From a virus, in IMG/VR virus record IMGVR_UViG_3300033150_001234, positions 27,307 to 91,306 of that record: a DNA stretch of 64,000 bases; one strand, given 5' to 3'. Below, piece after piece: positions 35,859 through 46,110 of the stretch. A program made the translations under genes and the position numbers. Each line of letters opens with the position of its first letter. Position 1 is the first letter of the stretch. Under the pieces are notes generated by a model. The model had not been told where the DNA came from. It searched no databases and saw nothing but the letters and a program-made list of their open reading frames with translations.

Positions 35859-37562
35859 ATGATGGATATAATTCACAAATTTAATTCAAAAATCGAAAAG
35901 GTAAAATCGGATAAGATTTGTCTTCGATGTAAAAATAAAACTGCAAGCATTGCAGTAGTTGAAAATGCTGAATACTTTATTTGTTCAGAGTGTAGTATAA
36001 GAATATCGATGCACGATTTATTAATGAAGACGTTGCTCAATGCATATAAACAACTGAAATGGAGTATAGTTCCCGAAAAGAATAAGTCTGCATTAGAAGA
36101 AGAATGGACGACAATTAATCATTATGACATAAGTGAGTGGAGTAAGTGGCTTAAAGAGGGATATTATGTCAAGCATAAGAAATATTGGGCAAAGAACATA
36201 GGATTGGGAGTAAGGACTGGGAGCGCTAGTAATATTACAGTAATCGATGTTGATGAACTTGATAAATTTCCCGAAAAGTGGCTCGACTCAACCATCGTTC
36301 AGAAAACTCCGAGCGGAGGTTATCATTTATTTTTTCAATATGAGCCAGACATGAGAACAACACAAGCAACAAAAGGAAAATTAGGTATAGAGGTATGCGG
36401 CGACGGTAAAAAGGTTACGATATATCCTTCGAATAATTATCTATGGAAGAACTTTACGCTAAAAATGCCAAAAATGCCGAAAGAATTAAAAGAGCTAATA
36501 CTCGCTAATTGTAAAAAATCTGAAAATCTATCTGATGATATATATAAGGAGATAGATATTCCTGAGGGACAAAGGAATAATCAGCTAGTGACAATCGGAG
36601 GTGTTCTTAGAAAATTTTTGCCAAAGCAGCAGCTAAATAACACATTGAGAGTAATTAATCAATCATTGTGTAATCCTTCGTTACCGCAGATGGAAATAAC
36701 AAACCTCGTAAAAATGTTGAGTTCATATGATGATGATGATAATGATTTTTTTAAAAATCAGGTATACGAATATTTAAAGATGGTCGATGAAGAACATTCG
36801 CGGGATATATCGCAGGCATTAGAAATAAAACGAGGAAGGACAGATGGATTTTTGAAAAAACTGTGTGATGAAGGGAAGATAATGAAAATTGCTCGTGCAA
36901 CATATAAAGTAAAAGTACGAGCAGATTGGAAAGAGGGATTCGAAGGTGAAAATATACAGGCGCTAGATTATAAAGTTCCGTATTTCGATGATATTGCATA
37001 TTTTGTTCAAGGTGACATGATTATCATTGGGGGTCAGCCAAAGATAGGAAAGACAACAATAGCAGTTAATGTATTGAAGAAATTAGTAGTGCAAAAGACA
37101 AAGCCCCACTATTTATGTATTGAAGGAGGCGCTCGACTTAAAAAAACAACAAATATTTTAAAGATTGACCCAAAGAGCTTTCTTCATCTTTATGAATGCG
37201 ACCCGATGAAAATTGAAATTGAATCAAATGCGATTACAATTTTAGATTGGTTATACATCGAAGATAAGTCGATGACAGATAAAATATTCAAATATTTATC
37301 TGAAAAATTGCAAGAGAGGAAAGGATTATTAATTGTTTTTGTGCAACTTAAAGAAAACGGAGATTGGTTTGCACCAAATATGATTAAGCAGTTTCCTTCA
37401 TTAGCAGCAAAATATTTTTATAGTGATGAAACGGGCGAAACAGGATATTTTGAAGTCTCAACAATAAGAGACCCTAAGGGATTTAACAGGTTTGTGAGAA
37501 TACCCTGTCGTTATGATAGATATACAAAAGTGCTGGAGATAATAAATGAAGAGAATCAATAA
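35859..37562 (+). CDS. Primase-polymerase (Prim-Pol) + PriCT + RecA-fold helicase
   Basis: N-terminal Zn ribbon, GVRTG..VIDVD, TPSGGYHLFF, EGQRNNQL..PSL, Walker A GQPKIGKT. Confidence 0.88.
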   Translation: MMDIIHKFNSKIEKVKSDKICLRCKNKTASIAVVENAEYFICSECSIRISMHDLLMKTLLNAYKQLKWSIVPEKNKSALEEEWTTINHYDISEWSKWLKEGYYVKHKKYWAKNIGLGVRTGSASNITVIDVDELDKFPEKWLDSTIVQKTPSGGYHLFFQYEPDMRTTQATKGKLGIEVCGDGKKVTIYPSNNYLWKNFTLKMPKMPKELKELILANCKKSENLSDDIYKEIDIPEGQRNNQLVTIGGVLRKFLPKQQLNNTLRVINQSLCNPSLPQMEITNLVKMLSSYDDDDNDFFKNQVYEYLKMVDEEHSRDISQALEIKRGRTDGFLKKLCDEGKIMKIARATYKVKVRADWKEGFEGENIQALDYKVPYFDDIAYFVQGDMIIIGGQPKIGKTTIAVNVLKKLVVQKTKPHYLCIEGGARLKKTTNILKIDPKSFLHLYECDPMKIEIESNAITILDWLYIEDKSMTDKIFKYLSEKLQERKGLLIVFVQLKENGDWFAPNMIKQFPSLAAKYFYSDETGETGYFEVSTIRDPKGFNRFVRIPCRYDRYTKVLEIINEENQ

Positions 37563-38478
37563 TATAATTTTGGGAGGTGGAATTGCGGGATTAATTTTAA
37601 ATAATTATATCAAGGATTCGATATTGATTGAAAAATCGGAACATGTTGCAAGAGATTTTTCGAATAATGTATTCCCTAAATATATTCACGCTTCTGATGC
37701 AGCTATTAAATTGTTTACTGATGTGGGGATTAAACCTACGCTGAAACGTTTTAAAATAGGCATATATTATGATAGTAAAATATTCAGTTTTTATCGTAAT
37801 GTCAAGGGAAAGAGGATGATGTATTGTGATTATTGTCTAAAAAAATACGGTCAGCTAAAAATAAACAAAATGAATCAATATATGAAAAAGAAAAGAATAA
37901 CACATCATATAACAAATAAACAAGAACTAATTGATACTATATATAATAAAAATAAAAATAGAATCTTAATCAACGAGAACGTAGCATCAATTGATGTTAT
38001 TCGAAGGACGATATATACTAACTGCAATGAATATAAATATAAGAAATTAATATCGACAATACCAATTAACATATTTGCAAATATAGCTAAATTAAATTCA
38101 GACATATTAAGGTACATCACGCTCAATGCATTTATATTTAATGTATATAATATAATGTGTAAGTATGACTTTATTTATGTTCCTGACTTACATTATAGGG
38201 CAAATCGTATAAATATTAATCGTGATGAGGGTGTAGTCATTGTTGAGGTTACAGGAGATGAGTCGAAACTAAAAACAAGCGATGTAAATAATTTCACGCA
38301 AATGTTTTGTGGAAAAATAATAAATTCAAAATTCACTCAATATAGGTTCCCAATAACGTCTCTAAGAAAAAATGTAAAACATGTGAGGTTTGTTGGGCGC
38401 TTTGCACAAGGTAATTATGCAATAATGATGGGAGATATTGTTGATGAAGCAAAAAGATTATCTAAAGAAAATATTTGA
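37546..38478 (+). CDS. FAD-dependent oxidoreductase (UDP-galactopyranose mutase / HemY-like)
   Basis: IILGGGIAG, IEK, ISTIP, VGRFA. Confidence 0.7.
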   Translation: MKRINNIILGGGIAGLILNNYIKDSILIEKSEHVARDFSNNVFPKYIHASDAAIKLFTDVGIKPTLKRFKIGIYYDSKIFSFYRNVKGKRMMYCDYCLKKYGQLKINKMNQYMKKKRITHHITNKQELIDTIYNKNKNRILINENVASIDVIRRTIYTNCNEYKYKKLISTIPINIFANIAKLNSDILRYITLNAFIFNVYNIMCKYDFIYVPDLHYRANRININRDEGVVIVEVTGDESKLKTSDVNNFTQMFCGKIINSKFTQYRFPITSLRKNVKHVRFVGRFAQGNYAIMMGDIVDEAKRLSKENI

Positions 38479-45125: not shown

Positions 45126-46110
45126 GAAAATAGATAACATGAGAGAAGCATTGGGAACATCACCCAATAGTAAAGTGCAAAAGACGTATGACTATGTAAA
45201 TTCACTCGAATCATCATATGTTAAATTAACCGATTATACCATTAACCCATACAAAACACTGTTGCGGATGGCGACTGCTACGTGGGGTTCGGGTAAGATT
45301 GGCGAAGGCAATGGTTCAACACAAAAATGGGAAAAACTGTCGCCAGAAAATCGATATCGAGTTGTCTTATCGGTTCTAACAGGAAATACACTACCAACAG
45401 CTCAGGAATCAGTAAGTTTTACATTTGAATTTAATGGTATTCCGAGACATACCTTTGACCAATTTGCGAGAATGAGAATTGGCTCGGGACATGCTTCAAT
45501 AGGATGTAGAGATAATTCAAAACTAGATGCGCCATTCGTATTATATTCAAGATTGTATAATGAGTTACAAAACAATCCTGATTTAAAACGCAGGTTTTTG
45601 GAGTGGGTCATCAAGACAAAAGACTTATATGAAGAAATATTAAGCACAGGGAAGGGCTCTTGGCAGACAGCAAGAGCAGTCTTACCGATGAGTTATAATC
45701 ATTCATGGGTATCGTATGTAAATCTATTAGCATTGAGAGGACAAATGGGAAGAAGATTAATGGCATGTGAAGAGGCGCCGATGGTGCTATTATTCTGGAA
45801 GATGAGAACAGAAATCGAAGACAAATTTCCCTTAATTGCAAATTATTTAAGACCGGCGTGCGATAGAGCAAAAAAATGTATCTATCATGGAGGGGCTGAG
45901 GGCTTGACAAAATATTTCTCTTCACTGTTTGCGGGATGTGGTAGATGGCCTGATGAAAATAAATATTCTGAATTTAATAATAGTTGCACTGATTATGAAG
46001 AGTTATCTAAATATGTAAAAATTGTAAAGCCTGATGAGTGGAAGGATTTTAATTTTGATGACTTCGACAAGATTAGCGATAAAGATAAAAAATTATTTAA
46101 CGAACAATGA
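45115..46110 (+). CDS. thyX: Divergent flavin-dependent thymidylate synthase (ThyX-like)
   Basis: ESVSFTFEF.GIPR...QFARMRIG, ARAVLP, VN..AL...RR; RHR motif altered to RMR. Confidence 0.7.
   Translation: MKDKKIDNMREALGTSPNSKVQKTYDYVNSLESSYVKLTDYTINPYKTLLRMATATWGSGKIGEGNGSTQKWEKLSPENRYRVVLSVLTGNTLPTAQESVSFTFEFNGIPRHTFDQFARMRIGSGHASIGCRDNSKLDAPFVLYSRLYNELQNNPDLKRRFLEWVIKTKDLYEEILSTGKGSWQTARAVLPMSYNHSWVSYVNLLALRGQMGRRLMACEEAPMVLLFWKMRTEIEDKFPLIANYLRPACDRAKKCIYHGGAEGLTKYFSSLFAGCGRWPDENKYSEFNNSCTDYEELSKYVKIVKPDEWKDFNFDDFDKISDKDKKLFNEQ

Follow-up and report, generated by a model that had tools for sequence, protein, structure and literature searches.

A widespread viral gene block between primase and polymerase that may place a modified pyrimidine in phage DNA

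Results

Layout and conservation of the block

We analyzed a 64,000-nucleotide stretch, which we will call the window, of the viral record IMGVR_UViG_3300033150_001234 (positions 27,307 to 91,306). Positions 37546-46110 of the window contain eight co-oriented ORFs (all genes described here are on the plus strand), and most neighbors overlap by 1-44 nt. A preliminary description of this DNA listed seven contiguous, overlapping enzyme genes. The enzymes were confirmed, but a 95-aa ORF had been missed, and the kinase ORF, unlike most of the others, is preceded by a 33-nt gap. The upstream border of the block is a fusion of a PrimPol-type primase with a DnaB-like helicase (35859..37562; Pfam Prim-Pol, 4.8e-11, with PriCT_1 and a weak match to DnaB_C). 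In relatives, a DnaG-DnaB primase-helicase takes its place.

Beyond this record, at least 67 viral contigs in IMG/VR, all uncultured, share the block. The gene-neighborhood check that had been suggested found the same gene set in the same order, and none of the 67 contigs is a cultured phage. Among 37 fully flanked loci, the pyrophosphatase-HAD fusion is present in 36, the UGM-like protein in 31, the short-chain dehydrogenase/reductase (SDR) in 29, DnaE in 26, and the small thymidylate-synthase-like protein in 24. The additional 95-aa ORF (39364..39651), identified from the ORF list and its translation, encodes a Lys/Glu-rich protein with no family match. Most relatives have a small ORF (95-142 aa) after the pyrophosphatase-HAD gene; locus L002 has one of 95 aa at the same place and other loci have cluster c8 there, and no sequence similarity was found between the relatives' small ORFs and ours.

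Pyrophosphatase-HAD fusion, kinase, and polymerase

The 308-aa fusion protein (38438..39364) joins an all-alpha dNTP pyrophosphatase of the dUTPase_2/MazG type to an HAD phosphatase, as described earlier. This assignment is supported by Pfam (dUTPase_2, 1.3e-11, and HAD_2), by PHROG 173 and 420, and by the family profile A7, which matches the MazG-like protein 4qgp, dimeric dUTPases, and the putative 5'(3')-deoxyribonucleotidase 3bwv. The HAD half is of the 5'(3')-deoxyribonucleotidase type, with a DLDGT motif and invariant D129 and D131.

The dNMP kinase (40982..41434, 150 aa) is a P-loop protein of the dTMP-kinase-like type (PHROG 761, thymidylate kinase, 5.4e-15; 35 bits against TIGR00041, which is under the cut-off). 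The polymerase gene (41391..45125) indeed encodes a UDG-superfamily glycosylase fused to a PHP-DnaE, or C-family, replicative polymerase (Pfam UDG, 4e-15, and DNA_pol3_alpha, 3e-65, along with PHP, a finger domain, and HHH_6). A UDG domain N-terminal to the replicative polymerase is shared with the T-hypermodified phages SP-15 and YerA41 (PMC13697223). However, their polymerases belong to the A family, UDG motif A reads GANPS in our protein, and the module loci vary: the UDG part is fused in about 13 of them, while others encode it separately, as a protein of about 190 aa.

A minimal thymidylate-synthase-fold enzyme

The 158-aa protein encoded at 40472..40948, which we term mini-TS, has the fold of thymidylate synthase. 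Failure to adopt this fold had been named beforehand as a refuting result; the predicted structure has a high-confidence TS core (pLDDT 93), and the structures that it matches best are those of CMP/dCMP enzymes. The protein itself has no match to the Pfam TS model, but one relative, L038 (linked to mini-TS at E 7e-10), passes PF00303 with 29.4 bits (cut-off 24.3). The best sequence-profile match is T4 dCMP hydroxymethylase, gp42 (E 3.5e-4). In that alignment the SRR motif, the nucleophilic Cys, the RS-D motif with the equivalent of Asp169, D126 (on the cytosine-specifying D179), and the H-x-Y motif all correspond, so that mini-TS keeps the nucleophile, the phosphate-binding Args, and the cytosine-specifying Asp. 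Homologues at 28-59% identity conserve these residues without, or almost without, exception.

Two stretches are absent from mini-TS: about 41 residues that would connect strand 2 to the helix preceding SRR, and the whole segment beyond the H-x-Y strand, which in gp42 amounts to 27 C-terminal residues. With them, the cofactor-binding helices and the C-terminus are gone. In known TS-type enzymes, the residues that contact folate or flavin sit in these segments. So, mini-TS may need a partner, or it may do something else. In several relatives (293-355 aa) it is fused to the kinase. Many relatives also carry RSQN, which is the D169N signature of the hydroxylases; the window's mini-TS keeps the Asp.

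Modeled as a homodimer, mini-TS scored 0.81 (the best of three controls scored 0.00). Among proteins of solved structure, 20 of 30 one-chain pairs reach this mark, compared with 1 of 23 single chains, although resemblance to TS dimers of known structure may account for the pass. The runs had at least 76% of contacts in common, with a partner pLDDT of at least 82, and R74 and R75 lie in the interface, which is also the case in TS dimers. Mini-TS is probably a homodimeric enzyme that modifies dCMP at C5.

A ThyX-derived enzyme

The last gene of the block (45115..46110) encodes a 331-aa flavoenzyme derived from ThyX (Pfam Thy1, 56.5 bits), and the preliminary description was right to call it altered. 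Among the module's genes it shows the strongest conservation (139 homologues, 40-98% identity). With canonical ThyX (T. maritima TM0449 and phage ThyX) it shares the nucleotide-site Arg and Gln and the Arg of ARxVLP. In contrast, the His of GHE, the His of RHR (which becomes RMR), and the Ser and Tyr of SxRY have been lost in comparison to the canonical ThyX of co-resident phage records. It also has about 35 additional aa at the N-terminus and about 90 at the C-terminus, where four Cys (C249, C255, C275, and C291) are invariant, as are R111, Q116, R119, R121, R132, and R187. Because a canonical ThyX is found in the same record as the ThyX-like gene in 8 of 40 cases, and a canonical ThyA in one more (9 of 40 in total), the enzyme is, judging from sequence, probably not just a dTMP synthase. 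It keeps the nucleotide-binding Args and has lost the methyl-transfer residues, and it would probably be a second uracil-nucleotide-directed flavoenzyme.

An alternative, which we consider quite unlikely, is that thymine and not cytosine is replaced. From dUMP (or dTMP), the ThyX-derived enzyme would make a modified uracil nucleotide, dTTP and dTMP would fall to the pyrophosphatase-nucleotidase fusion, which would destroy them, the polymerase-linked UDG would remove stray dU as in phages of the SP-15/YerA41 type, and mini-TS would be secondary (for example, making 5-methyl-dCMP) or would act on the same pathway. The strong conservation of the ThyX-like gene fits this, as does an Arg that is kept where, in the alignment, canonical ThyX has the Arg that contacts uracil. 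Degradation in two steps, first of dNTP to dNMP and then to nucleoside, is how PBS2- and SP8-type phages classically exclude thymine, and the fused 5'-nucleotidase fits thymine exclusion better than cytosine exclusion, which counts against a modified cytosine. UDG-polymerase fusions, too, are known from T-hypermodified phages (PMC13697223). However, eight relatives encode canonical ThyX, and a dCMP deaminase is kept in 15 of the 37 fully flanked loci; therefore, dTMP synthesis appears to continue. The cytosine-specifying Asp of mini-TS and its structural resemblance to CMP/dCMP enzymes also argue for cytosine.

Sugar genes and glycosyltransferases

The first gene of the block (37546..38478) encodes a 310-aa FAD-type flavoprotein that appears to be a compact relative of UDP-galactopyranose mutase (UGM) and of the amine-oxidase/PPOX superfamily. 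By itself it has no Pfam match and fails the GLF model, so the resemblance to UGM that had been noted before holds at the level of the family: profile A5, built from 32 homologues, places the eukaryotic-type enzymes AfUGM and TcUGM first (E 1e-6). The protein shares with the UGMs of A. fumigatus (3uka/3ute) and T. cruzi (4dsg) the Rossmann GxGxxG motif for FAD (GGGIAG, at the N-terminus), and R221, G284-R285, and Y291 fall on the Arg, Arg, and Tyr that bind the diphosphate. In the ESM Atlas it resembles clusters bearing Amino_oxidase/GLF (TM 0.84), and viral clusters with a length of about 305 aa are numerous there; beyond UGM its fold neighbors also include amine oxidases and PPOX. Known UGMs are longer (370-510 aa), and our protein lacks most of their helical domain.

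The NDP-sugar epimerase of the preliminary description is an extended SDR of the epimerase/reductase type (39648..40475, 275 aa; Pfam Epimerase, 4.2e-20, and RmlD_sub_bind, 5.2e-19; PHROG 540, nucleotide-sugar epimerase, 1.7e-33). Its catalytic dyad lies in YGKTK (Y121 and K125, both invariant), the TDE motif of dehydratases is absent, and its family profile (A6) matches NDP-sugar dehydratases and epimerases (6e-35).

It had been stated correctly that the locus lacks a glycosyltransferase: we found none within 37546-46110, no GT-B DNA-glycosyltransferase near it, and in this genome no counterpart of the GT4 genes that 12 of the 37 fully flanked loci carry within the same block. (In L002, a GT2 gene adjoins the primase.) The only glycosyltransferases, a GT9-family (GT-B) enzyme (11874..13238; Glyco_transf_9, 1e-09) and a GT2-family enzyme (17316..18137; Glycos_transf_2/Glyco_tranf_2_4, about 3e-06), belong to a nine-gene glycan cassette with a pyruvyltransferase and methyltransferases. 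GT9 is a candidate for the missing transfer step and GT2 is a second candidate. As both sit among virion genes, the SDR and the mutase may instead serve virion glycosylation.

A broader form of this objection is that the block serves routine nucleotide economy, with glycan genes that have no connection to it, and that the DNA stays canonical. The ThyX-like protein would make dTMP, the kinase would be a TMP kinase, the MazG/HAD fusion would be for house-cleaning, mini-TS would be a reduced protein that binds dNMP in an auxiliary or regulatory role, and the SDR and UGM-like protein would feed glycosylation of the virion or host surface. The ThyX-like protein does pass Pfam Thy1, and neither a second thymidylate synthase nor a dCMP deaminase is encoded in the 91-kb genome; the glycan cassette and the lack of a glycosyltransferase in the locus point the same way. 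Nevertheless, we think this unlikely. The catalytic Cys, Arg set, and Asp of mini-TS do not vary even among deeply diverged homologues, and relatives fuse it to the kinase. The ThyX-like enzyme has lost canonical catalytic residues, and in 9 of 40 records its gene occurs together with a canonical ThyX or ThyA. Also, sugar and nucleotide genes are interleaved in the interval from primase to polymerase in dozens of contigs.

Discussion

Of the systems known so far, the nearest are the glycosyl-5-hydroxycytosine pathways that were solved experimentally for RB69, DLP3, HY126 (AfhB), and the Rhizobium phage RL38J1 (PMC13326640; PDB 9iqu/9iqc). There, TS homologues with N177D make 5-hydroxy-dCMP and are accompanied by a TMP-kinase-like kinase, a dCTPase, an HAD phosphatase, and glycosyltransferases, and in RL38J1 by a UGM (PMC13326640). 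Our module has the corresponding parts: a TS-superfamily member that carries the cytosine-specifying Asp and is predicted to yield a C5-modified dCMP, an adjoining kinase of the same type, an all-alpha dCTPase-type pyrophosphatase with an HAD phosphatase, and phage-encoded sugar-donor enzymes. As this general scheme was published in 2025-26, calling the pathway new was an overstatement. There are differences, however. The TS enzymes of those phages have 217-234 aa, rather than 158 aa without the cofactor-binding segment and C-terminus; in our mini-TS, position 169 is Asp, and the UGM-like protein is a minimal version. Our module also has a ThyX-derived enzyme as a constant component and a UDG-DnaE as its polymerase. 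The window's locus has no glycosyltransferase, and all module members are uncultured. The T4 system (gp42, the dCTPase gp56, the dNMP kinase gp1, and alpha/beta-glucosyltransferases) follows the same logic, from dNTPase to TS-fold enzyme, dNMP kinase, polymerase, and glycosyltransferase. Our module differs in having a different type of kinase and a nucleotidase fused to its pyrophosphatase, and it lacks a T4-type glycosyltransferase.

Part of the original argument did not survive. DeoC (PF01791) and an NDT-like enzyme (PF05014), which were said to lie downstream, have no match in the whole 91-kb genome even at E ≤ 1. DUF1599/Nmad1 was placed there as well, but DUF1599 reaches only 13.7 bits (cut-off 25) at 54841-54903, and the downstream ORFs at 53319-54963 have no Pfam match at E ≤ 5. 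The proposal of a modified, possibly sugar-bearing pyrimidine still has its TS-fold modifier, kinase, pyrophosphatase/phosphatase, polymerase, epimerase, and mutase.

We propose that the pyrophosphatase half of the fusion would convert a canonical pyrimidine dNTP to dNMP and that the HAD half could destroy surplus canonical dNMP. The mini-TS homodimer would bind dCMP via four Args and Asp126; Cys95 would add to C6 of the base, and C5 would then attack an electrophile. Because mini-TS keeps Asp119, the equivalent of ThyA D169, we slightly favor a one-carbon unit, giving 5-hydroxymethyl- or 5-methyl-dCMP, while relatives with Asn at this position are predicted to be 5-hydroxy-dCMP synthases. The adjacent kinase would yield the diphosphate and the host's NDP kinase the triphosphate, which UDG-DnaE would incorporate while removing stray uracil. 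The SDR (4-epimerase-like) and the UGM-like flavoprotein could supply an NDP-furanose donor such as UDP-Galf, and a glycosyltransferase would transfer the furanose to DNA. It is very improbable that the module instead makes, by analogy with MilA in mildiomycin biosynthesis, a free nucleoside or nucleotide metabolite, such as a modified (d)CMP-sugar compound that would act as a signal, inhibitor, or anti-defence molecule.

The absence of the D169N signature from mini-TS, the lack of a glycosyltransferase in the locus, and the possible use of the sugar genes for the virion all weigh against the modified-cytosine reading. On balance, we lean towards the view that the block is a widespread, virus-restricted module that alters the pool of pyrimidine dNTPs and so puts a C5-modified pyrimidine, probably glycosylated later, into phage DNA.

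A conserved gene block among the replication genes

The module lies in a complete virus record (91,306 bp with direct terminal repeats; the window is its bases 27307-91306), with a G+C content of about 32% and nearly all of its genes on the + strand. It sits within the replication block, which runs from a PrimPol-helicase gene (35859..37562) through eight module ORFs to RuvC, RecA, a PD-(D/E)XK nuclease, SbcD/SbcC, and an exonuclease. The preliminary description had listed seven contiguous, overlapping genes here. We found eight co-oriented ORFs (37546-46110), and most of them do overlap, by 1-44 nt, but there is a 33-nt gap ahead of the kinase gene. 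The ORF that was not on that list encodes a Lys/Glu-rich protein of 95 amino acids, between the pyrophosphatase-HAD fusion and the SDR.

Five of the assigned identities are backed by Pfam, PHROG, and NCBIfam: a dUTPase_2/MazG-type pyrophosphatase fused to a HAD phosphatase (38438..39364), an extended SDR of the NDP-sugar epimerase/RmlD type (39648..40475), a dTMP-kinase-like P-loop kinase (40982..41434), UDG-PHP-DnaE (41391..45125), and a Thy1 (ThyX) protein of 331 aa (45115..46110). The 310-aa ORF (37546..38478) and the 158-aa ORF (40472..40948, + strand), which we will term the UGM-like flavoprotein and the mini-TS, had no family match in these databases when queried singly. On balance, we think that the module supplies a C5-modified pyrimidine dNTP, most likely made from dCMP via the mini-TS, together with an NDP-furanose donor. 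The alternative that its product is a free metabolite seems very improbable.

Several genes that had been proposed downstream of the module were not found. DeoC and the NDT-like enzyme have no match in the whole genome, even at E ≤ 1, and DUF1599 reaches only 13.7 bits (54841-54903), in a stretch whose ORFs (53319-54963) have no Pfam match at E ≤ 5. (This sub-threshold signal, the only one for DUF1599 in the genome, comes from a 132-aa ORF at 54565-54963 that matches PHROG 1485, of unknown function, with E = 2.5e-13.) Nor did we find a dCMP deaminase, ThyA, or second ThyX in the genome. Upstream of the window, the genome's first 12 kb (G000:C1:66-12404 in the whole-genome record; locus L071) encode an RNA ligase, a metallophosphoesterase, an HD phosphohydrolase, an AAA_33 (PNK-like) kinase, DUF932, and an RlaP nucleotidyltransferase. 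Together they resemble a set for RNA repair, which might act against host tRNA-cleaving defences.

Recurrence in uncultured viruses

Scanning IMG/VR with an alignment of the ThyX-like protein gave 67 loci, on contigs of 4-424 kb. When all of the ORFs of these loci were clustered, this gene-neighbourhood search revealed one recurring order: primase-helicase, UGM-like flavoprotein, pyrophosphatase-HAD fusion, (trimeric dUTPase), small ORF, kinase, SDR, a protein of about 170 aa, DnaE, ThyX-like enzyme, (GroES, GroEL), PD-(D/E)XK nuclease, and two GT4-type glycosyltransferases. The proteins of about 170 aa are matched by the mini-TS HMM (down to E = 7e-10), as are the C-terminal halves of kinase fusions of 293-355 aa. 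Among the 37 loci with full 10-kb flanks, the pyrophosphatase-HAD fusion is present in 36, the flavoprotein in 31, the SDR in 29, DnaE in 26, the mini-TS in 24, a dCMP deaminase in 15, and the GT4 genes in 12. The flavoprotein gene is at most two ORFs from the fusion in 40 of 45 loci. These are real genes that make up a conserved, translationally coupled module.

Some related contigs have additional features. Two loci, L030 (2699-3343 and 4205-4786) and L031 (9252-9998 and 13037-13684), each encode two different mini-TS paralogues, which may differ in specificity. GroES (about 97 aa) and GroEL (about 541 aa) are encoded directly downstream of the ThyX-like gene in about 25 viral contigs (L039-L069); neither has a homologue in the window's genome. 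In L002, the closest related contig, genes for a methyltransferase and a GT2 (2062-3557) lie about 0.5 kb upstream of the primase-helicase gene, and immediately ahead of the UGM-like gene is a dCMP deaminase gene, which the window's genome lacks.

A minimal thymidylate-synthase fold

The 158-aa ORF had been read as a TS fold, and this is borne out by an AlphaFold model with the TS alpha/beta fold (pLDDT 93.1, with the family alignment as input), by Foldseek matches, and by the match of the family profile to T4 dCMP hydroxymethylase (E = 3.5e-4). The best PDB matches of the model were AfhB of phage HY126 (9iqu, 9iqc), which is a flavin-dependent dCMP hydroxylase, T4 dCMP hydroxymethylase, and ThyA. 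Relatives are few: only 16 among 1.8 billion representatives searched exhaustively with HMMER. Aligned with these, the family's motifs are R21, S-R-R-L-x-x-Q-F, P-C-x-E-S, N-x-R-S-x-D, the invariant D126, and H-x-Y.

Other searches with the mini-TS found little. It does not match Pfam PF00303 even at E ≤ 5, and a relative in locus L038 (L038:9489-9998) scores 29.4 bits, above the cut-off of 24.3. Among viral proteins of comparable size, BFVD holds no good match (all matches with E < 1e-4 are at least 234 aa), and the ESM Atlas was uninformative. Single-sequence PDB searches with the 310-, 158-, and 331-aa proteins gave no match, and single-protein IMG/VR scans with the mini-TS and with DnaE found nothing; such scans succeeded only with narrower or better-conserved alignments. 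A word-indexed protein search added one further mini-TS relative, and two for the flavoprotein, beyond the query's own cluster.

The profile alignment places the nucleotide site of T4 dCMP hydroxymethylase on the mini-TS: C95 is the nucleophile Cys, R116-S117-x-D119 is R-S-x-D, D126 is D179, and H154 and Y156 are H-x-Y. C95, which corresponds to the nucleophile C146 of ThyA (P-C-x motif), is the same in all 17 sequences and throughout the extended set. Counterparts of the phosphate-binding arginines of ThyA (R21, R126', R127', and R166) and of Ser167 are also present: R21 is kept in 14 of the 15 full-length sequences, there is an S73-R74-R75 motif, R116 is invariant, and S117 is nearly so. The invariant D126 occupies the position of ThyA N177, where an Asp gives specificity for cytosine. 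(We rejected E28 as the equivalent of ThyA E58: the profile alignment puts it in strand 2, at E35 of the T4 enzyme.)

The model spans residues 1-211 of the 264 of E. coli ThyA, with 56 residues unaligned, and T4 gp42 has about 41 residues (within 57-105) and a final 27 to which nothing in the mini-TS corresponds. The folate-binding helices (ThyA ~38-110) and the closing C-terminus are not present. As the nucleotide site and the nucleophile are kept while internal and C-terminal segments are missing, the mini-TS is a minimal TS core. Judging from established TS structures, the missing segments would be those that hold the cofactor in known members.

A two-copy model of the mini-TS scored 0.81 (the best of 3 controls scored 0.00), a mark reached by 20 of 30 proteins solved as one-chain pairs and by 1 of 23 solved as single chains. 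Across the two-copy runs, contact agreement was at least 76% and pLDDT at least 82, and R74 and R75 are interface residues, as they would be in a TS dimer. The model thus supports a homodimer in which the pair of arginines would reach across to the other subunit. This result may, though, reflect mere likeness to solved TS dimers.

A ThyX-like enzyme with altered catalytic motifs

The last gene of the module was described as an altered ThyX, and alignment against canonical phage ThyX from co-resident records agrees. The protein passes Pfam Thy1 (56.5 bits against a cut-off of 24.8), and the canonical motif residues are replaced. Neither the RHR(x)7S-x-R-Y motif nor the GHE histidine is found in the window's protein, which has RMR...GCRD and GNT instead. 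Across the family, G-H-E has become G-N-T, R-H-R has become R-x-R, and S-Q-R-Y has become G-x-R-D, while the arginine set is retained. We found at least 139 homologues (40-98% identity), in which R111, Q116, R119, R121, R132, and R187 are invariant, as are four Cys (249, 255, 275, and 291) in an extension of about 90 aa at the C-terminus.

Could this enzyme merely be the phage's dTMP synthase? It is the sole TS-type gene in the window's genome; in 9 of 40 related records, a canonical enzyme is encoded beside it (ThyX, with 148-235 bits, in 8, two of them complete, and ThyA in one more). Because of this co-residence and the changed catalytic motifs, we think it unlikely that this is all the enzyme does. 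(Canonical ThyX is ORF cluster c35; cluster c37, also considered, is a P-loop kinase.)

In one subgroup of relatives (L033-L069), the ThyX-like gene reads as two ORFs, of about 270 and 240 aa, over about 1.45 kb (for example, L044:10001-11447). In another locus (L037:10001-10708 and the next two ORFs), a GIY-YIG/NUMOD3 homing-endonuclease ORF parts the two halves. An intron or some other mobile element may have inserted there, much as in the td genes of phages.

Probable enzymes for a furanose donor and for nucleotide supply

The first gene of the module had been likened to UDP-galactopyranose mutase (UGM). The resemblance stands at the level of the family profile: the first matches of a 32-member profile were the UGMs of A. 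fumigatus and T. cruzi (E = 1e-6), and it aligns with UGMs over Y-x-K-L-I-S-T, the Arg of F-Y-R, and a G-R-x-x-x-W/x-x-Y motif. The FAD-binding GxGxxG motif is G10-G12-G15. R221, R285, and Y291 align with the Arg at chain positions 326 and 446 and with Tyr 452 of AfUGM, which we take to be diphosphate-binding residues. The 310-aa protein has no Pfam match, however, and neither a GLF domain nor the full three-domain architecture. As known UGMs are about 60-200 residues longer, we call it UGM-like rather than a family member. The ESM Atlas contains many viral clusters of about 305 aa, and in it the flavoprotein has a TM of 0.84 to Amino_oxidase/GLF-bearing proteins. The AF2 model is poor (pLDDT 51 from a 4-row alignment, with only generic amine-oxidase matches by Foldseek), so we do not rest the UGM reading on it.

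The SDR family profile matches NDP-sugar 4,6-dehydratases and epimerases (E = 6e-35), and the sequence has the features of an NDP-sugar 4-epimerase/reductase (TGPRGYLA as the Rossmann motif, and S-T-S and Y121-GKT-K125 as the catalytic residues). The presence of S-T-S and Y-G-K-T-K and the absence of the dehydratase motif T-D-E favour a predicted epimerase or reductase. (A folate/pterin reductase of the FolM/PTR1 type was rejected, as this is an extended and not a classical SDR.) In the fusion, the N-terminal half resembles MazG-like proteins and dimeric dUTPases, and the HAD half, with a D-x-D-G-(T/V)-L motif, matches a putative 5'(3')-deoxyribonucleotidase.

A more specific scheme, which is speculative and in our view improbable, is a two-component C5-modifying system. 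The mini-TS would bind dCMP and form the Cys-C6 adduct, while a partner in trans (either the UGM-like protein or the Cys4-tailed, ThyX-derived enzyme) would supply a one-carbon or oxygen electrophile carried on a flavin. One pyrimidine, or two, so far undescribed in DNA would result and would then be furanose-glycosylated, in a large uncultured phage clade.

Comparison with known modification pathways

Flavin-dependent synthesis of 5-hydroxy-dCMP has been shown for phage TS homologues that combine N177D with D169N (Lee et al., NAR 2026, PMC13326640; HY126 structures). Their genes neighbour those for a TMP-kinase-like kinase, a dCTPase, a HAD phosphatase, and glycosyltransferases, with a phage UGM in addition in RL38J1 (PMC13326640). 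These glycosyl-5-hydroxycytosine pathways follow the same logic as the window's module. The D169N signature (AfhB, RB69 gp48, DLP3 gp80) is not in the window's mini-TS, which has D119 (RSTD) instead. Asn is at this position in 4 of the 16 other aligned family members and in about 10 of 29 locus homologues (RSQN, RSSN, or RSMN), with His in three more. As the window's protein keeps Asp and many relatives have the R-S-Q-N of AfhB, the mini-TS family probably spans two chemistries.

About 13 related loci have the UDG fused to DnaE; elsewhere it is encoded on its own (about 190 aa). The window's UDG domain (41391-41960) has motif A G-A-N-P-S and motif B H-P-S-S, which presumably mix family-4/5-like and MUG/SMUG-like features, so its base specificity may be other than plain uracil. 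In L048 (5460-6743 and 6745-8991, for instance), L053, L056, and L057, DnaE reads as two adjoining ORFs, 427 and 748 aa long, perhaps through a split gene, a frameshift, or programmed recoding. Fusions of UDG with a polymerase have been linked to T-hypermodified phages, but there the polymerases are of the A family (PMC13697223). Thymine rather than cytosine might be replaced in this phage, but the mini-TS has the cytosine-type Asp; we regard replacement of thymine as unlikely.

No glycosyltransferase had been seen in the module locus, and the whole genome agrees: its only two, a GT9 (11874-13238) and a GT2 (17316-18137), are in a glycan cassette (11874-19916) that follows the major capsid gene (10800-11780) and precedes later virion genes. 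The cassette also encodes a polysaccharide pyruvyltransferase, several SAM methyltransferases, and a radical-SAM protein. There is no glycosyltransferase in the genome's first 18 kb, nor in its first 27 kb overall, and the relatives' GT4 genes have no homologue in this genome. The cassette may decorate the virion, or it may provide the missing DNA transfer step. The former would fit with ordinary metabolism plus virion glycosylation as the explanation for all of these genes. Set beside the altered motifs of the ThyX-like enzyme and the conserved gene order, this seems unlikely, and we prefer a modified dNTP with a furanose donor.

Implications

Modified bases protect phage DNA from restriction enzymes and CRISPR, and they are a source of tools for molecular biology. 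In metagenomics, cytosine- or thymine-modified DNA is under-recovered with some library methods. The ThyX-like gene has no relative among 50,697 GenBank phages (tblastn; DnaE has only distant matches there), and a GTDB scan of 185,579 species genomes found it on just two MAG contigs. As it is nevertheless on at least 67 viral contigs, the module may mark a large unexplored phage group with non-canonical DNA.

The module also offers three compact enzymes: the mini-TS, which is the smallest TS-fold enzyme so far seen and would lack the cofactor scaffold; the ThyX-like enzyme, a ThyX without its methyl-transfer residues; and the 310-aa UGM-like flavoprotein. Each of them bears on how the thymidylate-synthase and ThyX folds are retooled for new chemistry, a question raised explicitly by the authors of the 2026 work on 5-hydroxycytosine (PMC13326640).
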